Assembly (NCBI GenBank): GCA_963720695.1
Contig: CAVRGG010000001.1
Span: 804,299 to 868,298 of the forward strand
Direction of reading: 5' to 3'
From: an uncultured Acidimicrobiaceae bacterium
Lineage (GTDB): Bacteria; Actinomycetota; Acidimicrobiia; Acidimicrobiales; Ilumatobacteraceae
DNA length: 64,000 nucleotides
This document shows, piece after piece, positions 3,238-50,508 of the stretch (its first letter is position 1; every line of letters begins with the position of its first letter). The translations under genes and the position numbers were made by a program. The notes under the pieces are model-generated. The model had not been told where the DNA came from and made no database searches. It saw nothing but the letters and a program-made list of their open reading frames with translations.

Positions 3238-4656
3238 GCGACGTGCAGCGTCTGCTCGGCGACCTGCTCACCGATGCGGCACTCGCCACGGCGGTGCTGC
3301 GCGGCCAGCCGTCGACGGTGGTCCGTGGGGTGACCCACGATTCGCGCCAGGTCGTCGAGGGGTCGTTGTTCTGCTGCGTTCGTGGCTCGACCGTCGATGG
3401 GCACGATCTCGCTCCGGCAGCTGTGGCCGCGGGAGCGACGGCCCTGCTCGTCGACCACCCGCTCGACCTCTCGGTCTCCCAGATCGTGGTGGCCGACACC
3501 CGCGCCGCGATGGGTCATCTGGCGGCGGCGTTCTGGGGGCACCCGTCGCGTTCGTTGACACTGGTGGGCGTCACGGGGACCAACGGCAAGACCACCACGA
3601 CGAGTCTCATCGCGTCGGTGCTCGATGCAGCCGGGATGTCACCGGGGACGATCGGCACGCTCACCGGTCGCCACACCACGCCCGAGGCACCCGATCTGCA
3701 GGCGCAGCTGGCCGAGTTCGTTCGGGACGGCAAACGCTCGGTGGTGATGGAGGTGTCGTCGCACGCCCTGCTGCTCCACCGGGTGGTGGGCTGCCACTTC
3801 GCGCTGGCCGTGTTCACCAACCTCGGCCGGGACCATCTCGATCTGCACGGCACCGTCGAGCGATACTTCGCAGCGAAGGCGATGCTCTTCGAGCCCGGGT
3901 TGAGCGACCGCGGCATCTCCAACATCGACGACATGCACGGTCGACTGCTCGTCGACGCCGCGCCGATCCCGATGGAGGGGTTCTCCGCGGCGGACATGCA
4001 CGACCTCGTCGTCAGCCCCAGTGAGCACGCCTACACGTGGCGTGGCCAGTCGATCCGGGTCGGGATCGGTGGCGCGTTCAACGCGATGAACAGCCTCGCT
4101 GCGGCGACCGCTGGAGCGGCACTCGGCGTCGACGTCGCCGTCGTCGCAGCCGGGCTCGGTGCGGCGCCGCCCGTGCCTGGGCGATTCGAACCGGTCCACG
4201 CCGGCCAGGCCTTCGACGTGATCGTCGACTTCGCCCACACGCCCGATGGCCTGCGGGAAGCGCTCGGCGCCGCCCGCTCGGCCGTCGACCGGGGACGGGT
4301 GATCGTCGTGTTCGGATGCGGGGGCGATCGTGATCGCGACAAGCGCCCGGAGATGGGTGCGGTGGCGGCCGAGCACGCCGACCACGTCGTGGTGACGTCG
4401 GACAACCCTCGCTCGGAGGATCCCCTCGAGATCATCAATGCCGTGATGGCGGGGGTGTCCGCGGACTACCGTGGCCGTGTTGTGACCGAGCCCGACCGAC
4501 GCCGAGCCTTTGCAATGGCGTTCCAGATCGCGTCGCCGGGCGATGTGGTCGTGATCGCCGGCAAGGGGCACGAGACCACACAGACCATCGGGACCCAGGT
4601 CCTTCCGTTCGACGACCGCGCGGTGCGCGCGCGAACTGCTGGAGGCAGCGCTGTGA
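3234..4656 (+). CDS. murE: UDP-N-acetylmuramoyl-tripeptide synthetase MurE; last ~8 codons and stop lie in the +1 frame as written
   Basis: GVTGTNGKTTT P-loop, DNPRSEDP and GKGHE motifs. ATGA overlap with ftsI. After ...LPFDDRAV the +1 frame reads ELLEAAL-TGA (stop 4654..4656), overlapping the mraY GTG at 4653. The written frame has no stop and runs into mraY. Confidence 0.85.
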
Positions 4657-43067: not shown

Positions 43068-44057
43068 GTGAGACTGGGCGACATGCGCGCCGTCGTCCTG
43101 CAGTCCCATGGTGGTCCCGAAGTGCTCACGATCGTCGAGGTCGAGGACCCGGTGCCCGGTCCTGAGGAGGTACTGGTGCGCGTGGCGGCGACGGCACTCA
43201 ACCGCGCCGACCTGTTGCAGCGGATGGGTCTCTACCCCGATCCGCGGGGCCGTGTGCCGGAGATCCCCGGCCTGGAGTTCGCCGGCACCGTCGCCGCCGT
43301 CGGGGAGCGGGCGAGCATGTGGTCGGTGGGAGATCGAGTGATGGGCATCGAGGCGGGCGGCGCCTACGCGGAGCTGATCACTACCCACGAGCGTCAGCTG
43401 CTGGCCGTGCCGGCCGGACTCGACCTCGTCGACGCCGCGGCGATCCCCGAGGTCTTCCTGACCGCGTGGGATGCGCTGGTGTTGCAGGGAGGACTGACCA
43501 GCGGTCGATGGGCGCTGGTCCACGCCGGTGCCAGCGGCGTCGGCACAGCTGCCATCCAGATCGCGAAGGCCGTCGGAGCTCGCATCGCGGTCACCTGCTC
43601 GTCGGGCAAGGCAGATCTCTGCCGCGAACTCGGTGCCGACCTCGTGCTGGAGCGCTCGCCCCACGACTGGCTGGCGGATGCCGTCGCCGCCGTGCCCGGC
43701 GGCTTTCACACGGTGCTCGACGTCATCGGCGGCGACGAGGTCGACCGCAACCTGCAGGCCGTCGCGGTGAAGGGCACCATCGTCCAGGTCGGCCTCATGG
43801 GTGGAGGGCGTACGCCCGTCAACGTCGGACTGCTGCTGGGCAAGCGGGCGACCTGGGTGGGCACCACGCTGCGGACGCGTCCGCTGGAGGAGAAGGTGGC
43901 CGTCACCCGTCGATTCGCCGCCGAGATGCTGCCGCTGTTCGACGCCGGTGAGCTTCGCCCCGTGATCGACAGCCGCTATCCCTTCGCCGAGATCGCCGCC
44001 GCGCACGCGCACATGGAAGCGAACGCGAACGCCGGCAAGATCCTCATCACCCTGTAG
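43068..44057 (+). CDS. qor: NAD(P)H:quinone oxidoreductase (zinc-independent MDR family)
   Basis: GGPEVL, LNRADLLQRMGLYP and HAGASGVGTAAIQIAK motifs. Alternative start ATG 43083. Confidence 0.85.
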   Translation: MRLGDMRAVVLQSHGGPEVLTIVEVEDPVPGPEEVLVRVAATALNRADLLQRMGLYPDPRGRVPEIPGLEFAGTVAAVGERASMWSVGDRVMGIEAGGAYAELITTHERQLLAVPAGLDLVDAAAIPEVFLTAWDALVLQGGLTSGRWALVHAGASGVGTAAIQIAKAVGARIAVTCSSGKADLCRELGADLVLERSPHDWLADAVAAVPGGFHTVLDVIGGDEVDRNLQAVAVKGTIVQVGLMGGGRTPVNVGLLLGKRATWVGTTLRTRPLEEKVAVTRRFAAEMLPLFDAGELRPVIDSRYPFAEIAAAHAHMEANANAGKILITL

Positions 44058-44114
44058 CCCTCACCAGCCGTCCCTCCACCCGCAGCCGGAGAGCATCGCC
44101 GGACCCGGAAAGGG

Positions 44115-45656
44115 TCAGCGGACCTTGCACTTGATCGTGTGGTAGCCGGTGGCACCGTCGGGTGCGACGGGGGTGCGCTCCTCGGTCTGGGTCTCGCCGG
44201 TCTTGTCGGTGGCGCGGACCTCGATCTTGTAGTCACCGGCGGGCGCGTTCCAGTCGAGGACCCACTGGCGCCAGGCGTCGTCGGAGACGTCCGTCGCCAG
44301 CCGCGCCTCCTGCCACTCGCCGCCGTCGATGCGGACTTCGACCTTCTCGATGCCGCGGTGCTGCGCCCAGGCGACGCCGGCGATCTTCTGCGGGCCCGCC
44401 TCGATCGTCTTGCCGTTGCGTGGCACGTCGATGCGCGACTGGGTCTTGATCGGCCCGAGACGACCCCATCCGCGCGGCACCCAGTAACCCTGCTGATCCC
44501 ATGTCGTCAGCTCGATCTTGCTCAACCACTTCGTCGCACTCACGTAGCCGTACAGGCCGGGCACGACCAGGCGCGCCGGATAGCCGTGCTCGAGGGGGAG
44601 CGTGGCGCCGTTCATCCCGACCGCGATCATCGCATCGCGACCGTCGAACGCCGCCTCGACGGGGAACCCGCACGTCCAGCCGTCCTGGCTGGTGCTGTAG
44701 ACCTGCTCGGCGCTGTCCTGCACGCCGGCACGGTCGAGGATGTCCTGGAGCAGCACGCCGCGCCACACGGCGTTCCCGATGTAGGGACCGCCCACGTCGT
44801 TCGACACACAGCACAGGGTGACCACCCGCTCGACCTGCGGCATGGCGAGGAGTTCGTCGTAGGTGAAGCTGTAGGGCGAATCGACCATCCCCTTGATCTC
44901 GCACTTCCACTTCGCCGCATCGACGCGGGGGAAGGAGAGTGCGGTGTCGATGCGATAGAAGTCCGAGTTCGGCGTGACGAACGGCGACGTCGGGCTGAGC
45001 GTCGCGGCATCGGGCACCGCAGGGATCGTGTCCACAGCACCCGCCGTGGGCAGGGGCGCCTTGGTGGCCTCGCGGATGTCGGAGATCCGGCGGTTGTCCA
45101 GTGCACGCGCCACCCCGCCGGCGGCGGCCGCGGCGATCGTGGCTGCACCGCTCGTCGCCAGGAATCGACGGCGATCCCAGCCGAGCGGCGCTTTGGACGG
45201 TCCGGGCGTCTCGATCGGCTTGGGCTGGAGCGCACGATGGAGCACGACGCCGCCGAGCAGAGCACCGAGCAGGCTGGGCACCGCAGCGCCCGCGCCTTCG
45301 CCGGGCCGGTGCATCGCGGCCACGGCGCCGACGAGTCCGAACACGCCGAAGCCGACCATGCCGACGACGGGCCGCCGTACGGACGCGATGCCCAGACCCA
45401 CGGCGGCGACGGCGAGGATGCTGATGATCCCCACGCGCAGGGCGAGCTTGTCGTTGGAGCCGAAGGTGTCGATGGCGAACTGCTTGACCCACCGTGGGAC
45501 TCGGTCGATGACCTCGCTCCCGACGGCGTCGATGGGCGAGACGACGTCGGTGATCGCCGCGACGAGCATGCCCGTCGTGACGGCGAGCGCGCCGGAGACG
45601 AAGCCGGCGATGGCTCCGATGGATCTGCTCGGGGTACCGGGTGATGAGGTGTTCAT
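44115..45656 (-). CDS. Membrane-anchored molybdopterin-dependent oxidoreductase (sulfite-oxidase fold)
   Basis: About 190-aa multi-TM N-terminus. Moco domain (FYRIDTA, TLCCVSNDVGG, HGYPARLVVPGLYG) and an Ig-like dimerisation domain. ATG overlaps the kinase stop (ATGA). Confidence 0.8.
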   Translation of the reverse strand: MNTSSPGTPSRSIGAIAGFVSGALAVTTGMLVAAITDVVSPIDAVGSEVIDRVPRWVKQFAIDTFGSNDKLALRVGIISILAVAAVGLGIASVRRPVVGMVGFGVFGLVGAVAAMHRPGEGAGAAVPSLLGALLGGVVLHRALQPKPIETPGPSKAPLGWDRRRFLATSGAATIAAAAAGGVARALDNRRISDIREATKAPLPTAGAVDTIPAVPDAATLSPTSPFVTPNSDFYRIDTALSFPRVDAAKWKCEIKGMVDSPYSFTYDELLAMPQVERVVTLCCVSNDVGGPYIGNAVWRGVLLQDILDRAGVQDSAEQVYSTSQDGWTCGFPVEAAFDGRDAMIAVGMNGATLPLEHGYPARLVVPGLYGYVSATKWLSKIELTTWDQQGYWVPRGWGRLGPIKTQSRIDVPRNGKTIEAGPQKIAGVAWAQHRGIEKVEVRIDGGEWQEARLATDVSDDAWRQWVLDWNAPAGDYKIEVRATDKTGETQTEERTPVAPDGATGYHTIKCKVR

Positions 45657-46855
45657 GAGTGCTCCTTCGGGGGGAACCAGAGTCGGATGTCGCCGCCGGG
45701 ACCGTCGCCCAACCACGCACGGCCGCCGTGCTGCTGCACGAGGGCGCGAGTGATGGCGAGGCCCAGGCCGGCATGACCGGTGCGGGTCGTACGGGCCGGG
45801 TCGGCGCGGGTGAACGGGTCGAATGCGTGGGCACGGAAGTCGGCGGGAAAGCCGGGTCCGTCGTCGAGGATGCGCACCGAGACTCCGTCGGCAGCCGTGG
45901 TGACGCTGAGTCGGACGTTGCCGTCGGCGACGCAGTGCCCGATGGCGTTCTCGATCGGATTGCGCAAGACCCGACCGATGTCGAGTGCGGTGGCGTTCAC
46001 GAAGGCCGGCCCGTCGGACGTGAGATGCAGGTGGACCCCGCGGCGCTCGGCCAGGGGGGTGAGTGCTTCGACCGCCTCGTGGGCGACCTCGGCCACCGAG
46101 ACGGTCTCGGTCGCGCTCGGCCGGGCACCAGCCTCGATGCGCGCGTACTCGACGAGTTGATCGAGCAGCGCTTCCACGTTGATCAGTTCGTTGCCGATGA
46201 TCCCCATGTATCGGTCGGGATCGGTGGCGACGCCGTCCTGAAGGCTCTCCACGGCCGCCCGAATGGCAGCGAGTGGGGTGCGCAGATCGTGGCCGACGCT
46301 CGTGAAGAGCATCTGCCGGGCAGCGCCGAGTCGCTCGCGCTCCACGGCGGCGTCGTGCAGCGTCGACACCATCTCGTCGACGGCGGCGGCGGTGCGCCCG
46401 ACCTCGTCGACGCGCCGGATCCCGGTGCGCACGGTGAGATCACCGGCTGCGACCTGTTCGGCCACCTCGCCGAGACGGGCGATGTCGCGGGCGAGGGGCC
46501 GGGTCAGTTGCGTGCCGACCACCAGCGCGATCCCGCACGACAGGATCAGCACGACCAGGAACAACCGATAGTCGTGCGAGGAGAGGAACATCGCGTTCGA
46601 TGCGGCGGAGGTGGTGACGGCGCCGAGCGCGAGCGAGCACAACCCGACCACGAGAGCGGCACCGGCCACGCTCGCCCTGCTCGACACCCACCGGCGCAGC
46701 AGCGGGACGAGGGCGGCCGCCACCACGGCCGGAGCGGCGAGGATGATGATGAGGTGCAACCGTTCGTCGCCGTTCGGCGGCTGGAGGAGCACTTCGGCGA
46801 GGACGATGGCGCCGAGGACCAGGCCGGTCAGCCACAGCAGCAGGCGGGCGCTCAT
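45653..46855 (-). CDS. Sensor histidine kinase (2 TM, HAMP, HisKA, HATPase)
   Basis: H-box SVGHDLRTPLAAI, N-box RNPIENAIGH and G-box DDGPGF...GLGLAI. ATGA overlaps on both sides. Confidence 0.9.
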   Translation of the reverse strand: MSARLLLWLTGLVLGAIVLAEVLLQPPNGDERLHLIIILAAPAVVAAALVPLLRRWVSSRASVAGAALVVGLCSLALGAVTTSAASNAMFLSSHDYRLFLVVLILSCGIALVVGTQLTRPLARDIARLGEVAEQVAAGDLTVRTGIRRVDEVGRTAAAVDEMVSTLHDAAVERERLGAARQMLFTSVGHDLRTPLAAIRAAVESLQDGVATDPDRYMGIIGNELINVEALLDQLVEYARIEAGARPSATETVSVAEVAHEAVEALTPLAERRGVHLHLTSDGPAFVNATALDIGRVLRNPIENAIGHCVADGNVRLSVTTAADGVSVRILDDGPGFPADFRAHAFDPFTRADPARTTRTGHAGLGLAITRALVQQHGGRAWLGDGPGGDIRLWFPPKEHS

Positions 46856-47547
46856 GGCTCGAACCTGTACCCGACACCCCACACGGTGGTGATCCAGCGC
46901 GGCTCGTCGGGATTCGTCTCGATCTTGTTGCGAAGGCGGCGCACGTGCACCGTGACCGTGGCCGGGTCCTGGAAGTCGGGCGAGGAGTCCCACACGTGCT
47001 GGAGGAGCTGGGCGCGCGAGAACACCTGCCGCGGCGCTTGGGCCATGAAGGCGAGGACGTCGAACTCCTTCGCCGTCAGCGACGCGGTGACGGCACCGGG
47101 CCCGGTCCCGACGGTGACCTCTCGGGCCTTCAGATCGACCTGCAATCCGTCGAACTGCAACACGTCGACGGCGGTGGGTGTCGACTGTGCCCGGCGCAAG
47201 ACGCTGCGGACGCGGGCGGTGAGCTCGCGGGGCGAGAACGGCTTGGTGACGTAGTCGTCGGCACCCAACTCGAGTCCGAGCACGCGGTCGGCCTCGTCCA
47301 CTCGCGCCGTGAGGAGGATCACCGGCACCCTGTTCGGGCCGCTGCGGCGCAGGAAGTCGAGGCCGGAGGCGCCCGGCAGCATCACGTCGAGCACGACGAG
47401 ATCCGGTTGGAACTTGGTGACCGCGTCGTCGACGGCATCGCCGCGATCGAGCTCCATGACCTCGTAGCCGTCACGCTGGAGATACTGCGCGACGACCTCA
47501 CGAACCGTCGGTTCGTCGTCGACCACCAGGATGCGGGGTGCTGCCAT
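46852..47547 (-). CDS. OmpR/PhoB-family response regulator
   Basis: ILVVDDEP...DLVVLDVMLPG receiver domain and a winged-helix domain (VWGVGYRF). The real start at 47547 lies inside ORF 46852..48165. Confidence 0.9.
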   Translation of the reverse strand: MAAPRILVVDDEPTVREVVAQYLQRDGYEVMELDRGDAVDDAVTKFQPDLVVLDVMLPGASGLDFLRRSGPNRVPVILLTARVDEADRVLGLELGADDYVTKPFSPRELTARVRSVLRRAQSTPTAVDVLQFDGLQVDLKAREVTVGTGPGAVTASLTAKEFDVLAFMAQAPRQVFSRAQLLQHVWDSSPDFQDPATVTVHVRRLRNKIETNPDEPRWITTVWGVGYRFEP

Positions 47548-47584
47548 CGCCGCACACCATACGGAGGATGCGAACCCCTGTGAA

Positions 47585-47612
47585 TGGATGTGCAGGAGAG
47601 TTTCGTGGATGT
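47585..47612 (+). promoter_or_regulatory. Direct repeat TGGATGT-N14-TGGATGT in the divergent intergenic region (candidate response-regulator site)
   Basis: TGGATGT occurs at 47585..47591 and 47606..47612, 21 bp centre to centre, between the regulator gene and the lipoprotein operon. Confidence 0.3.
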
Positions 47613-47711
47613 TTCTCGGTCCGTCGCCACACCGAAAGGCCTGCATCTGATCATCGTGGTGCGAACGACGACCCTGTTGCTTCGCACCGACCCGACGAAC
47701 TGGAGACCTCC

Positions 47712-47972
47712 GTGAACGTTCCCCACCGCCTGATCCTGCTGCCCTTGCTCGCCGTGAGCACGATGAGCATCGCCGCCTGTGGCAGCGACAGCACCAAGAG
47801 CCCCGCCACCCCGACCACCGATGCGATGATGACCGACACCACCGATGCGATGATGACCGACACCACCGATGCGATGATGACCGACACCACGGACGCGATG
47901 ATGACCGACACCACCGATGCGATGATGACCGACACCACGGACGCGATGATGACCGAGACGACGGGCGGCTGA
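47712..47972 (+). CDS. Small Met-rich repeat lipoprotein: signal peptide + lipobox + (DAMMTDTT)x6
   Basis: GTG 47712 with GGAGA 5 nt upstream. LILLPLLAVSTMSIAAC lipobox. Mature part is CGSDSTKSPATPTT + 6 octapeptide repeats + GG. Confidence 0.6.
   Translation: MNVPHRLILLPLLAVSTMSIAACGSDSTKSPATPTTDAMMTDTTDAMMTDTTDAMMTDTTDAMMTDTTDAMMTDTTDAMMTETTGG
47820..47963 (+). repeat. Six tandem copies of a 24-bp unit gatgcgatgatgaccgacaccacc
   Basis: Copies 1 and 2 are identical. Copies 3+4 and 5+6 share the acg|gac junction, suggesting a 48-bp duplication. Copy 6 is diverged (gagacgacg). Confidence 0.95.
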
Positions 47973-47975
47973 GCG

Positions 47976-48596
47976 ATGAGCACCAAGGCCCGGTGGGCCA
48001 TGCTCGCCGTGCTGCTGGTCGGTGCGGTGGTCGCCGTGTCGGTGAGCCACCGCACCAAACCCGATCAGGTGTCGGGGGCGGCGGGTGACGCTGTCCGTCC
48101 CGTGGTGCTCGAGCAGGACCTCCCGGTGCTCGATCCCGGACCGCTGCCGTCCGTCGCAGGTGCAACGGGGTGGATCAACACCGATCCGCTGACGAGCGCC
48201 TCCCTGCACGGCTCGGTGGTGCTCGTGGACTTCTGGACGTTCGGTTGCATCAACTGCCAGCACACGCTCTCCCATGTGAAGGCGTGGTACGACCGCTACG
48301 CGGCGGACGGTCTCGTGATCCTCGGCGTGCACACGCCCGAGTTCTCGTACGAGGCCGACCCCGCCAACGTCCAGGACTACGTGACCCGCGAGGGCATCAC
48401 CTACCCGGTGGCACTCGACCCCGACATGACGATCTGGCATGCATGGAACAACCACGCATGGCCAGGCTTCTATCTCTACGACACCGACGGGCAACTGCGC
48501 CTCAAGCACCTCGGTGAGGGCCGCTACGACATGACCGAGGACTCGATCCGGGCCCTGCTCGGCGTCGATCCCGCCAGCCCGAGAGCCGACGTGTGA
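47976..48596 (+). CDS. Membrane-anchored TlpA/ResA-like thiol:disulfide oxidoreductase (redoxin)
   Basis: N-terminal TM helix and the thioredoxin motif WTFGCINC. Begins 3 nt after the lipoprotein stop. Confidence 0.85.
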   Translation: MSTKARWAMLAVLLVGAVVAVSVSHRTKPDQVSGAAGDAVRPVVLEQDLPVLDPGPLPSVAGATGWINTDPLTSASLHGSVVLVDFWTFGCINCQHTLSHVKAWYDRYAADGLVILGVHTPEFSYEADPANVQDYVTREGITYPVALDPDMTIWHAWNNHAWPGFYLYDTDGQLRLKHLGEGRYDMTEDSIRALLGVDPASPRADV

Positions 48597-49264
48597 GCTC
48601 GTTCGCCGTCGCGGCCGTGGCGCTCTACGGCGCCGGCGTGGCCGCGTCGGCGAGCCCGTGCGTGCTGCCGCTCGTCCCCGGCTACCTCGGCGTGCTCGCC
48701 GATGCCGATGGGCGGCCCGGTCGCACGGGACGAGTGGCGATCTTCGCTGCGTCGGCGGTCACGACGTTCGCGATCCTGGGATCGCTCGTGGCGGCGTTCG
48801 GCTCGGTGGTGCACACCACGGTTGCCCTGCAACGGGTCGCCGGTGCGCTGCTGCTCGTCTGCGCGGCGGCAGCCCTGGCGACCCACTTCGGTCGCCTGCA
48901 GCAGAGTTGGCGGATCCCGGTCGCGATTCCGGCGTCGCCGGTCCCTCGTGCAGTCGCGCTCGGGGTGGGCTGCGGAGCTGCATGGACACCGTGTGTCGGT
49001 CCGCTCCTGGGTGCGGCGTTGACCGCGGCAGGCGGCGTGGGTTCGGTGTCTCGTGGTGCCCTGCTGCTGGCCGCGTTCGGCATGGGCGTGGTGACGCCGC
49101 TCGTCGCGATCGCCATCCTGCCGTTGCCGAAGGTGCCGGCCTCATGGCGTCGCATCGGCCGGGCGGCGAACATCGCCACGCCGGCGGTGCTGGCAGTGGT
49201 CGGTCTCGTCCTGCTGTTCGGGTGGTACGGGCCGCTGGTTCAGCGGTTGCCGACGGGCACGTAG
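48593..49264 (+). CDS. ccdA: Cytochrome c biogenesis/thiol-reductant transporter CcdA (DsbD family)
   Basis: Conserved SPCVLPLVP and TPCVGP cysteines and six TM helices. GTGA overlap with the thioredoxin gene. Confidence 0.85.
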   Translation: MSSFAVAAVALYGAGVAASASPCVLPLVPGYLGVLADADGRPGRTGRVAIFAASAVTTFAILGSLVAAFGSVVHTTVALQRVAGALLLVCAAAALATHFGRLQQSWRIPVAIPASPVPRAVALGVGCGAAWTPCVGPLLGAALTAAGGVGSVSRGALLLAAFGMGVVTPLVAIAILPLPKVPASWRRIGRAANIATPAVLAVVGLVLLFGWYGPLVQRLPTGT

Positions 49265-50508
49265 TCGCGAGTCTCGGGACCTGTGTACCACTGGCGCGGG
49301 CGGCTGATCTTCTGGTCCTTGTCGCCCAGGAGTTCCTGCCAGTGCGCCAACCAACCGACGGTGCGGGGAATCGCGAACAGCACGGTGAACATGGCGACGG
49401 GGAAACCCAGCGCCTGGTAGATGAGGCCGGAGTAGAAGTCGACGTTCGGGTACAGCTTGCGGTCGACGAAGTACGGGTCGCTCAACGCGGTCTCTTCGAG
49501 CTTCAGGGCGATGTCGAGCAGCGGGTTCTTGCCCGTCACCTCGAACACGTCGTAGGCCGTCTTCTTGATGATGGTGGCCCGCGGATCGAAGTTCTTGTAC
49601 ACGCGGTGGCCGAAGCCCATCAGCCGGCTGCCGCTGCCACTCTTGACCTCGTTGATGAAGGCCGGCACGTTCTCGACGCTGCCGATCTCGGTGAGCATCC
49701 GCACGACCGCCTCGTTGGCGCCGCCGTGGAGGGGACCGTAGAGCGCGGACGCCGCAGCTGCGGCAGAGGTGTAGGGGTCGGAGTGGCTCGAACCGACGAC
49801 ACGCATCGCGGTGGTGCCGCAGTTCTGCTCGTGGTCGGCGTGGAGGATGAACAGCACGTCCATGGCCCGCTCCAGGCGGGGGTCGATCTCGTACTCGCCG
49901 ATCTTCCACATCATGTTGAGGAAGTTGGCCGGGAACGACAGCGCGTTGTCGGGGTAGACGAACGGCAGGCCGACCGAGAACCGGTAGCACATGGCCGCCA
50001 GGGTGGGCATCTTGGCGATGAGCCGCAGGATCTGCTTGTCGCGGCTCTCCTTGGAGTGGATGTCCTTGGCGTCGTCGTAGAACGTGCCCAAGGCGGCCAT
50101 CGCGCTGACGAGCATGCCCATCGGGTGGGCGTCGTAGTGGAATCCGTCGACGAACCGCTTGCGCATGTTCTCGTGGATGAACGTGTGGAGGGTGACCTCC
50201 TCCTTCCACGTCGTGAGTTGATCAGCGGTGGGGAGGTCGCCGTTGAGCAACAGGTACGCCACCTCGAGGTAGGTGCTCTTCTCGGCGAGCTGCTCGATCG
50301 GGTAGCCCCGATACCGGAGGATGCCTGCATCGCCATCGAGGTAGGTGATCGCACTCTTGCACGCCGCCGTCTGCATGTAGGCAGGGTCGTAGATGAACAG
50401 CGAGGGATCGAGCTCCCGAACCGCGGTTGCCGGGAAGACGCCTCCGGTGATCGGAACCGTGATGGTCTTGCCGGTCCGATCGTCGGTGATGGTGATGGTG
50501 TCGGGCAT
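49240..50508 (-). CDS. gltA: Citrate synthase
   Basis: 422-aa ORF (ILRYRGYPIEQL, HADHEQNCGT, GFGHRVYK). Confidence 0.95.
   Translation of the reverse strand: MPDTITITDDRTGKTITVPITGGVFPATAVRELDPSLFIYDPAYMQTAACKSAITYLDGDAGILRYRGYPIEQLAEKSTYLEVAYLLLNGDLPTADQLTTWKEEVTLHTFIHENMRKRFVDGFHYDAHPMGMLVSAMAALGTFYDDAKDIHSKESRDKQILRLIAKMPTLAAMCYRFSVGLPFVYPDNALSFPANFLNMMWKIGEYEIDPRLERAMDVLFILHADHEQNCGTTAMRVVGSSHSDPYTSAAAAASALYGPLHGGANEAVVRMLTEIGSVENVPAFINEVKSGSGSRLMGFGHRVYKNFDPRATIIKKTAYDVFEVTGKNPLLDIALKLEETALSDPYFVDRKLYPNVDFYSGLIYQALGFPVAMFTVLFAIPRTVGWLAHWQELLGDKDQKISRPRQWYTGPETRDYVPVGNR

Follow-up and report, generated by a model that had tools for sequence, protein, structure and literature searches.

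Within a stretch of 64,000 nucleotides from the genome of an uncultured aquatic Acidimicrobiaceae bacterium of the Ilumatobacteraceae (contig CAVRGG010000001.1, positions 804,299 to 868,298; hereafter the window, in which all positions are counted from the first letter), we found at 44115-49264 six genes arranged as two divergent, translationally coupled operons, confirmed by the list of open reading frames (ORFs) and by family scans. The minus strand encodes an OmpR-type response regulator, a histidine kinase and a membrane-anchored enzyme with a molybdenum cofactor (Moco) domain of the sulfite oxidase (SUOX) fold (hereafter the Mo-enzyme); the plus strand encodes a Met-rich lipoprotein, a thioredoxin which by its sequence is of the DipZ type, and CcdA. 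This grouping is not due to chance, because the closest relative found (locus L161, whose Mo-enzyme is 94% identical) shows all six called genes in the same layout, and because the association recurs in other gene orders; the neighbourhood is thus conserved beyond the single sequence in which the initial annotation had noticed it. We tentatively interpret the cassette as an accessory, self-regulated module for redox buffering and repair of methionine on the outer face of the membrane in Ilumatobacteraceae (Acidimicrobiia), a reading to which we would give almost even chances. We propose it because the logic of the locus resembles that of MsrP-MrpX systems, because reductive CcdA-thioredoxin relays feed Met-sulfoxide reductases and because plant SOQ1 offers a parallel.

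The minus-strand operon runs from the OmpR/PhoB-type response regulator (46852..47547, 231 aa from the ATG at 47547) through the histidine kinase (45653..46858, 401 aa) to the Mo-enzyme (44115..45656, 513 aa), and each of the two junctions, read directly in the sequence, is an ATGA overlap. Facing it across a divergent intergenic region of 164 bp (47548-47711), the plus-strand operon comprises the lipoprotein of 86 aa (47712..47972), the membrane-anchored thioredoxin of 206 aa (47976..48596), which starts 3 nt past the lipoprotein stop codon, and the CcdA-type thiol-disulfide electron transporter of 223 aa (48593..49264), whose start is coupled to the thioredoxin gene via a GTGA overlap. Both the chain of overlapping minus-strand genes and the tightly spaced plus-strand operon had been described in the initial annotation, and both were borne out. 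Of the two housekeeping genes that flank the locus, one encodes a quinone oxidoreductase and the other a citrate synthase. The citrate synthase gene (minus strand) is convergent with ccdA, and the two share 25 bp at their 3' ends (49240-49264), as they do in L161; no terminator-like structure was found at this overlap.

The Mo-enzyme had been read from the sequence as a polytopic N-terminus fused to a SUOX-fold Moco domain, and this description holds: residues 241-392 match PF00174 in Pfam (1.4e-46), an immunoglobulin (Ig)-like domain follows at residues 404-493 (Pfam Big_7/Mo-co_dimer), and an AlphaFold2 (AF2) model contains five transmembrane (TM) helices at approximately residues 11-36, 69-92, 96-115, 122-143 and 162-198. 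Conservation was read in sets of 12, 57 and 76 homologues, and matches in PDB and Foldseek searches agree with the assignment. Cys283, the Mo ligand in the motif TLCCVSN, is invariant (76 of 76 sequences) and is the sole invariant cysteine. Just ahead of TM5, the stretch WDRRRFL (W160 to L166) is invariant in the 12-homologue alignment, and its twin arginine is kept at 90% or more in the 76 homologues; the RRRFL codons (45159..45173, minus strand) form a twin-arginine translocation (Tat) motif, as judged from this conservation and from the architecture of Sco3746. The loop between TM1 and TM2 (residues ~37-68, positions 45450-45550) belongs to the most conserved parts of the family, with the motif SPIDAVGSEVIDRVPxWLK..AI..FG..DKLALR; it is predicted to lie outside the membrane with two short helices, and could be a docking surface for the Moco domain or for a partner. 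The five-TM Moco proteins form a large family (more than 8000 database matches), and the best-named homologues of the Mo-enzyme come from metagenome-assembled genomes (MAGs) of Ilumatobacteraceae (Acidimicrobiia).

Sco3746 needs both Sec and Tat for its insertion and has been read as an MsrQ-MsrP-like fusion with haem-binding His residues, in a study that covered insertion rather than function or gene context (PMC5449189). The Mo-enzyme shares with it the five TM helices, the twin arginine before TM5, the outside C-terminal Moco domain and the membership in an actinobacterial family (PMC5449189). In this comparison at the level of architecture, however, none of the His residues that are the proposed ligands of two haems b in Sco3746 has a conserved counterpart in the homologues of the window enzyme. 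We considered an MsrQ-like haem-binding TM domain in the Mo-enzyme and rejected it: the N-terminal TM region gives no Pfam match, hence no Ferric_reduct domain was detected, and a conserved His in the TM helices was not found among the 76 homologues (His116 is present in 13 of them only), which makes a haem b relay unlikely. A gene for MsrQ itself (Ferric_reduct, haem b) was likewise not found in the window locus.

The Met-rich lipoprotein gene has a GTG start with a GGAG site 6 nt upstream. Its product begins with a signal peptide (…STMSIAAC) carrying the lipobox IAAC (Cys23), continues with STKSPATPTT and then consists of six copies of DAMMTDTT, encoded by a 24-nt tandem repeat array (47814..47956, plus strand; Tandem Repeats Finder score 258, 94% matches, 6.0 copies). 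Neither a globular domain nor a Pfam or NCBIfam family was detected in it. The mature protein contains 19% Met, compared with 0.4-3.5% in the neighbouring proteins, along with 19% Asp, 34% Thr and 21% acidic residues altogether, and the GC content at third codon positions (0.92) is in line with that of the flanking genes. In L161 the corresponding gene (3781-3945, 54 aa) has two copies of DAMMTDTT against six in the window, an exact in-frame difference of 96 nt between almost identical flanks; either the copy number, and with it the Met 'dose', truly varies, or the repeat collapsed when the MAG was assembled.

Comparable proteins were sought among 12,627 ORFs of 160 loci by scanning for 30-residue segments with at least 20% Met. 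The scan returned 27 ORFs, of which 12 were read as repeat-built exported Met-rich proteins, the one of L093 qualifying only when the limit was lowered to 5 Met in 30 residues. For most of these 12, either the distance to a thioredoxin or Mo-enzyme gene is at most 150 bp or the ORF is itself fused to a thioredoxin, and all lie within 1 kb; those of L091, L093 and L119 are found 750-970 bp from the matched thioredoxin domain. A Met-rich ORF adjoins a gene of the SUOX family in the window and in L026, L047, L088, L108, L123, L140 and L161. Met-rich lipoproteins of other repeat make-up occupy the orthologous position in L026 (EPATTEAMMD), L088 (TEAMT/EDSMT) and L161, and an EEMMEE repeat is found in L104. 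KDxMxKD peptides are encoded between an MsrP-like gene and a WTFGCINC thioredoxin gene in L108, L123 and L140, and are also present in L111 and L133. What these unrelated repeats have in common is export, Met content and a polar or charged filler, which matches the description of MrpX.

Three of these variants deserve individual mention. In L004 (5091-5800, minus strand) a single gene, located between those of CcdA and the regulator, encodes a Met-rich thioredoxin lipoprotein, in which the repeats (MTDDS/MMTDD) serve as a linker on the N-terminal side of the thioredoxin domain (WCPNC, Redoxin 2e-8); its ATG, preceded by a strong AAGGAG site, and its lipobox differ in frame by 1 nt, probably by an error of the MAG. 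In Nocardiopsis sp. FIRDI 009, a cultivable organism (L047, 9632-9967, plus strand), an acidic Met-rich lipoprotein built of E/D/M repeats (…EEMEEGTEEDMEEDSMDEEGMDDSMEDGSMEDDM…) is encoded 47 bp 3' of the Mo-enzyme gene, and no thioredoxin or CcdA homologue was detected within the 12.6-kb locus. The lipoproteins of L091 (2-184) and L093 (658-951, plus strand) with the repeat SAAPSGxMMEHS, rich in Met, His and Glu, are encoded directly upstream of CcdA-thioredoxin fusions and, given the His, seem to resemble metal-binding proteins more than the window lipoprotein does.

The thioredoxin has an N-terminal TM anchor and the motif WTFGCINC, and matches AhpC-TSA, Redoxin and Thioredoxin_8 in Pfam. 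It had been annotated as TlpA/ResA-like; that it is a membrane-anchored thioredoxin stands, but its sequence points more precisely to the DipZ type, with residues 55-196 matching Mycobacterium tuberculosis DipZ (2hyx) at 4.7e-40 in the PDB search and weaker matches to SOQ1 (2.3e-21), NHLRC2 and YkuV (2.2e-18). With M. tuberculosis DipZ (Rv2874) it also shares the CINC active site and a CcdA-type membrane partner. DipZ, however, is one polypeptide of CcdA, thioredoxin and PF17991, whereas the window has separate coupled genes, thioredoxin then CcdA, and PF17991, the C-terminal domain of DipZ, was not detected in the window thioredoxin. Relatives of this thioredoxin that are fused or bear PF17991 are found elsewhere (L091, L111, L095, L118). 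We know of no substrate of DipZ itself. Full-length DipZ-like genes (CcdA-thioredoxin-PF17991) adjoin their own OmpR-type two-component system (TCS) in L095, L096, L099, L117 and L124-L130, and these metagenome loci often contain a second small thioredoxin gene as well; DipZ-type relays may thus commonly be under TCS control.

CcdA matches DsbD_TM (PF02683, 3.6e-9) and DsbD_2 in Pfam, and its conserved Cys pair can be read in the translation in two 'PC' motifs, SPCVLP and TPCVGP. The CcdA and thioredoxin families together take up reducing equivalents from the thioredoxin of the cytoplasm and pass them to the cell exterior. Relays of this type are strictly reductive and supply extracytoplasmic Met-sulfoxide reductases in several bacteria (PMC13488963); in Streptococcus pneumoniae (Etrx/CcdA/MsrAB2), Haemophilus influenzae and Neisseria (PilB), as in the window, CcdA is combined with an anchored thioredoxin, there exporting reducing power for Met-sulfoxide (PMC13488963). 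In plants, the thioredoxin domain of SOQ1, homologous to that of the window, powers a lumenal Met-sulfoxide reductase activity, with CcdA as the proposed source of electrons (bioRxiv 10.1101/2024.11.01.621559), so that the chloroplast SOQ1/CCDA pair is a further counterpart. In contrast to the MsrAB and SOQ1 systems, no MsrA, MsrB or C-terminal domain of SOQ1 (Thioredoxin_10) was found in the window locus, where the Mo-enzyme is the sole candidate catalyst.

The regulator matches Response_reg (3.6e-28) and Trans_reg_C (3.2e-27) in Pfam and reaches no NCBIfam equivalog cut-off. In the kinase, HAMP, HisKA and HATPase_c come after a membrane part that is predicted to comprise four TM segments and to expose no more than two short loops on the outside. 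In an alignment of the window kinase with 17 homologues, its second extracytoplasmic loop (TSAASNAMFLSSHDYR, residues 82-97, 46568..46615, minus strand) emerges as a candidate sensing site: the pattern SAASNAMF[LV]S[STD]HD[YF]R is kept in all 13 aligned homologues of at least 58% identity, and MF.S.HD is still recognisable at 57% (L083) and 38% (L104). The loop holds Met89, His94 and Asp95, and Met89 is invariant in the same 13 homologues.

In the shared divergent region, ~100 bp upstream of the lipoprotein start, lies the direct repeat GAAACatccacGAAAC (47600..47615, minus strand). Its exact form, GAAAC-N6-GAAAC, occurs only once in the window, and CGAAAC-N6-GAAAC stands upstream of the regulator gene in 15 regions (14 orthologous loci and the window), with one half-site degenerate in L028 and L083. 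A direct repeat with a spacing of 11 bp, as is usual for OmpR/PhoB regulators, makes this box a candidate binding site of the regulator. Downstream of the box follows a CCGTATGGTG element, which is also kept in front of the orthologous regulator genes and accompanies the promoter-like sequence TTCACA-17 nt-TATGGT (47556..47584, minus strand), the only sigma-70-like match in 43900-49500. With the end of TATGGT only 8 nt away from the regulator ATG, the regulator mRNA would be leaderless or nearly so; the spacing between this -10-like element and the start codon (47545-47584 in the window) is similar in relatives, which suggests that throughout this clade the regulator mRNAs have little or no leader. 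On the lipoprotein side, nothing convincing was found as a second regulator box. From the position of the shared site and from its conservation, one box may drive both divergent operons, as in the CopRS system of Corynebacterium glutamicum, where a single direct repeat activates divergent operons, one of them with the thioredoxin-like gene tlpA (PMC3140484).

A survey of gene neighbourhoods, which the initial annotation had called for, was carried out from two directions. For the Mo-enzyme, the products of all six genes of the locus, together with both flanking genes, were mapped by BLAST in 80 genome loci with relatives; for the thioredoxin, we used 80 metagenome loci, many of them on contigs shorter than 3 kb. 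Targeted BLAST maps were preferred, since high-GC shadow ORFs and low-complexity links dominated an all-against-all clustering of the ORFs in the 80 Mo-enzyme loci; this clustering showed no conserved neighbour of the Mo-enzyme beyond citrate synthase and quinone oxidoreductase. Across several lineages the Mo-enzyme was found in varying combinations with a TCS, thioredoxin, CcdA and Met-rich ORFs, but most of its relatives are without the cassette. Among cultivable carriers, an Ilumatobacter relative possesses the complete set, and Arthrobacter sp. B2a2-09 has an operon of regulator, kinase and Mo-enzyme. In Acidimicrobiia, citrate synthase, Mo-enzyme and quinone oxidoreductase form a syntenic frame with a variable element X between the first two; only in the window, L161, L026, the degenerate L003 and L004 is X a CcdA-thioredoxin-lipoprotein operon facing the regulator and kinase genes. 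The Mo-enzyme is thus the stable gene, and the remainder, variable or missing in most relatives, is an accessory cassette. In L006 (4735-6027, minus strand) and L035 (4730-5842, minus strand) the slot of lipoprotein, thioredoxin and CcdA, facing regulator and kinase, is occupied by a secreted beta-propeller of seven blades (Pfam Lactonase, 1e-18), the N-terminus of which is rich in His and Asp (ADDGHHDR…).

The linkage of Mo-enzyme and thioredoxin/CcdA exists in at least four gene orders: divergent across the TCS, as in the window; with kinase-regulator on one strand and thioredoxin-CcdA-Mo-enzyme on the opposite strand in another actinomycete (L041); as Mo-enzyme-thioredoxin-CcdA in L084, where each junction is a 4-nt overlap, and in L082, which has a gap of 2 nt; and with ~2 kb between the Mo-enzyme and thioredoxin-CcdA in L118. 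Partial combinations are also encountered, namely kinase-regulator facing thioredoxin-CcdA (L083), kinase-thioredoxin-CcdA (L086) and regulator facing lipoprotein-thioredoxin (L088). Seen from the thioredoxin, a SUOX gene is the neighbour in at least 9 of the 80 loci; given the few SUOX genes per genome, we would roughly estimate this adjacency to be tens-fold above expectation.

A second, parallel trio was encountered on high-GC metagenome contigs whose signal peptides are of Gram-negative type (L108, L111, L123, L133 and L140, with L119 and L159 partial). It consists of a ~263-aa SUOX enzyme in the form of a Tat-lipoprotein (HICVEGWS), an 83-aa KDxMxKD peptide and a WTFGCINC thioredoxin (L108 5206-7606, L140 2518-5673, L123 383-2340), the thioredoxin being fused to CcdA in some of these loci. 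MsrP is the best family for this SUOX enzyme (9.3e-22, below cut-off). A divergent kinase-regulator pair stands beside the trio in L108 and L140, and no MsrQ was seen.

Regulated Mo-enzymes accompanied by a Met-rich sacrificial peptide are already known as a kind. In Azospira suillum, MrpX (20% Met, 44% charged residues, signal peptide) is co-regulated with YedY (PMC4436054), and in uropathogenic Escherichia coli the TCS OrhKR controls an operon of genes for an MsrQ-like protein, an MsrP-like protein and a Met-rich peptide (PMC8550376). With SigF/NrsF-yedY1Z1-mrpX of A. suillum, OrhKR-c3566-c3568 of uropathogenic E. coli and HprSR-msrPQ of E. coli, the window locus has in common an adjacent divergent regulator, dedicated to envelope stress (putatively so in the window), and a Tat-exported extracytoplasmic SUOX-fold enzyme, and with the MrpX systems a small exported unfolded protein of ~20% Met and charged residues (PMC4436054, PMC8550376). 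Compared with MsrPQ/MrpX, the window enzyme carries its own five-TM anchor, MsrQ and conserved haem ligands are missing, and a DipZ-type thioredoxin with CcdA is present instead of MsrQ; unlike MrpX, the Met-rich member of the locus is a lipoprotein built of acidic/Thr repeats, and the host is a monoderm actinobacterium. The initial impression that the gene combination is undescribed therefore has to be narrowed: the combination itself was not met in the literature searched, but TCS-controlled MsrP with a Met-rich peptide is known from Proteobacteria (PMC8550376, PMC4436054). What the literature searched did not contain is a TM-anchored SorA-like enzyme, a thioredoxin/CcdA component, a cross-phylum trio with DipZ-type thioredoxins, or an actinobacterial or other monoderm counterpart of Mo-based extracytoplasmic methionine repair; nothing relevant was found there either on the function of Rv0218/Sco3746 or on the actinobacterial combination of Mo-enzyme, thioredoxin and Met-rich protein.

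While the identities of the genes, their coupling, the conserved regulator box and the recurrence of the trio are evident from the sequences, we infer what a methionine module would act on, in which direction it would catalyse, by which path it would receive electrons and what would induce it. The kinase, devoid of a real sensor domain, would detect an oxidant in the envelope, possibly via oxidation of Met89 in its loop; the phosphorylated regulator would bind the GAAAC-N6-GAAAC box and activate the operon of regulator, kinase and Mo-enzyme and probably, as position and conservation of the site suggest, the opposite operon too. The surface-tethered lipoprotein with its 19% Met may act as a sacrificial oxidant sink like MrpX, as its composition and the recurrence of such proteins indicate. 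The thioredoxin and CcdA would carry reducing equivalents from cytoplasmic thioredoxin outward, and the Tat-exported Mo-enzyme would act as the reductase for Met-sulfoxide of the lipoprotein and of other proteins at the surface, perhaps also for that of the kinase loop. Thioredoxin and CcdA might thereby fill the role of MsrQ in the supply of reductant, or else keep the Mo-ligand cysteine reduced. To our knowledge no SUOX-fold Mo-enzyme driven by thioredoxin has been described, and none was found in the literature searched. The loop Met of the kinase may moreover be a redox switch that the Mo-enzyme resets, as proposed for E. coli HprS/HypV, where a periplasmic Met redox switch would be reset by MsrP (bioRxiv 10.1101/2021.09.09.459708).

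Several findings weigh against this proposal. In sequence as well as in predicted fold, the Mo domain is nearer to the sulfite dehydrogenases SorA/SoxC than to YedY/MsrP: NCBIfam gives 8e-41 for SorA and 7e-14 for MsrP (all below cut-off), phmmer against PDB gives 8.6e-26 for SorA (2blf) and 6.5e-5 for YedY, and Foldseek gives 7.6e-25 (346 columns) and 5e-10, respectively. The enzyme is built of two domains as in sulfite oxidases, and Foldseek aligns 323-359 columns with two-domain sulfite oxidases as opposed to ~210-245 with YedY. With 51.9 bits (E 6.9e-14) for MsrP (NF003767), which misses the equivalog cut-off of 207 bits, and with the extra Ig-like domain of sulfite oxidases, the Mo domain is no orthologue of MsrP. 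A second conserved cysteine that could serve thioredoxin exchange was not found in the alignment of Mo-enzyme homologues; Cys329 and Cys282 (of TLCCVSN) had been considered as thioredoxin targets and were rejected, both being variable and Cys329 being independent of thioredoxin adjacency. The scan of 43900-49500 detected no promoter for the plus-strand operon, whose co-regulation is only inferred. Some of the Met-rich analogues contain His (L091, L093, L119), which is compatible with metal binding too. Finally, X between citrate synthase and Mo-enzyme is nothing in ~13 loci and in L162 (75% identity), and in ~12 loci it consists of regulator and kinase without thioredoxin, CcdA or lipoprotein. 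Of the actinobacterial analogue of MsrP-MrpX that had been suggested at the outset, the recurring linkage of Mo-enzyme, thioredoxin, CcdA and Met-rich protein stands, whereas the Mo domain is SorA/SoxC-like and the cassette is missing in most relatives.

The likeness to SorA also feeds the explanation that we consider next, namely detoxification of sulfite or other sulfur oxyanions by an outward-facing sulfite dehydrogenase, with thioredoxin and CcdA repairing S-sulfonated or oxidised surface thiols and the Met-rich lipoprotein being incidental or absorbing radicals from sulfite autoxidation. The best sequence and fold matches of the Mo-enzyme are indeed SorA, SoxC, SorT and chicken/plant sulfite oxidase, and the Mo-ligand Cys and the two-domain architecture of SorAB, SorT and SoxCD are conserved. 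Yet all equivalog scores remain far below their cut-offs (SorA 140 of 600 bits, SoxC 130.7 of 420, SorT 98.6 of 570), and the catalytic trio of SorA residues appears not to be kept, in an alignment of low identity on which this mapping depends: SorA Arg55 corresponds to R235 or I236 (HMMER), R235 being Leu in ~10 homologues, His57 to the invariant D237, and W397 lies near the position of Tyr236. The AF2 model has low confidence at the cofactor-binding and active-site loops and was left out of such residue-level claims. Moreover, a gene for an adjacent c-type cytochrome (SorB/SoxD type, CxxCH) was not found in the locus, the only CxxCH motifs of the window being in one ORF ~10 kb away and in a shadow ORF that overlies the regulator gene in another frame. 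Membrane anchoring and a context of TCS, thioredoxin and Met-rich protein further set the window enzyme apart from SorAB, SorT and SoxCD, the parallel Gram-negative-type trio has an MsrP-like rather than SorA-like enzyme, and the recurrence of Met-rich proteins would go unexplained. All in all, we regard sulfite detoxification as unlikely.

Met-rich motifs are known to bind Cu(I), and the locus might instead serve copper homeostasis: the lipoprotein would bind Cu(I), the TlpA-like thioredoxin and CcdA would reduce the cysteines of Cu sites or Cu(II), and the TCS would sense copper like CopRS/CusRS. To this would fit the Met, His and Asp of the kinase loop, the His of some analogues (MMEH in L091 and L093) and the precedent of C. 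glutamicum CopRS, which is likewise an actinobacterial OmpR-type TCS with a single direct repeat of 11-bp period in a divergent region and a thioredoxin-like gene (PMC3140484); expression of E. coli msrPQ, too, is reported to be linked with copper stress (PMC9302797). The cop region, however, contains a Cu-ATPase and a multicopper oxidase, neither of which was found in the window locus, and its box is TGAAGATTT as opposed to GAAAC. In the real genes of 13 relevant loci we found no P1B-ATPase, multicopper oxidase, CopZ-type MxCxxC or PCuAC motif, and no MsrA or MsrB motif either, by crude regular-expression scans which divergent members can escape. The window repeat lacks His and Cys and has adjacent MM instead of MxxM, and across lineages only the Met content is kept, with charges swapping between D/E/T and K/D, which fits MrpX. 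Copper homeostasis would also leave the Mo-enzyme, the most consistently linked gene, without a role, and we rate it as quite unlikely.

Another possibility concerns signalling: the Mo-enzyme might mainly be a co-sensor that, through membrane contacts, conveys the state of its Moco domain, redox or substrate, to a kinase lacking a sensor domain, the thioredoxin-CcdA-lipoprotein operon being the output of such a three-component system. The two short outside loops of the kinase, the strong conservation of the TM1-TM2 outside loop of the Mo-enzyme, and the 4-nt overlap of kinase stop and Mo-enzyme start, which is kept in at least 10 loci including the distant Arthrobacter L079, speak for it. But the Mo-enzyme stands at the same chromosomal site without a TCS in many relatives, and operons of Mo-enzyme, thioredoxin and CcdA occur with no kinase in view, so that signalling is not its primary role. 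As the principal explanation we find it improbable; it is, however, compatible with methionine repair and not exclusive of it. Mere chance neighbourhood at an indel-prone spot between the citrate synthase and Mo-enzyme genes, where a TCS and a spare operon for a thiol relay would have come to lie, with the Met-rich ORF as just a low-complexity lipoprotein, would suit a cassette that is variable (the beta-propeller of L006/L035) and missing from most relatives, but is very improbable in view of associations rebuilt in different gene orders and distant lineages, of the fusion of Met-rich repeat and thioredoxin in L004 and of a regulator box conserved in the shared intergenic region.

Returning to the methionine redox module, a bolder generalisation can be formulated, which we regard as possible, if doubtful: SUOX enzymes without MsrQ would be driven by thiol electrons from CcdA and DipZ-type thioredoxins, and together with rechargeable Met-rich proteins of the surface or periplasm would constitute a widespread antioxidant 'battery'. 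Should this be true, both Actinobacteria, with five-TM SorA-like enzymes, and Gram-negatives, with MsrP-like lipoproteins, would own such a device. It would include the first thioredoxin-dependent reductase of the SUOX family and, for monoderm bacteria, the first system in which repair of Met-sulfoxide depends on Mo, and would provide a physiological partner for the long-orphan DipZ-type domain.

Mo-dependent repair of oxidised methionine outside the cytoplasm has so far been a Gram-negative matter (MsrPQ, MrpX). If our interpretation of the window locus is correct, monoderm bacteria, too, would maintain a regulated methionine 'buffer' at their surface, a function would be assigned to a family of five-TM Moco proteins that to date has been studied for membrane insertion alone, and a new route of electrons into a SUOX-family enzyme would be recognised, with thioredoxin and CcdA in place of a haem protein. 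DipZ-type thioredoxins, relatives of M. tuberculosis DipZ among them, would acquire a candidate partner. The locus also offers a compact regulatory unit, composed of one direct-repeat box and a kinase with a candidate sensor loop of 16 residues. For freshwater and soil Acidimicrobiia, such a module may be of help against oxidants of photochemical or biological origin.

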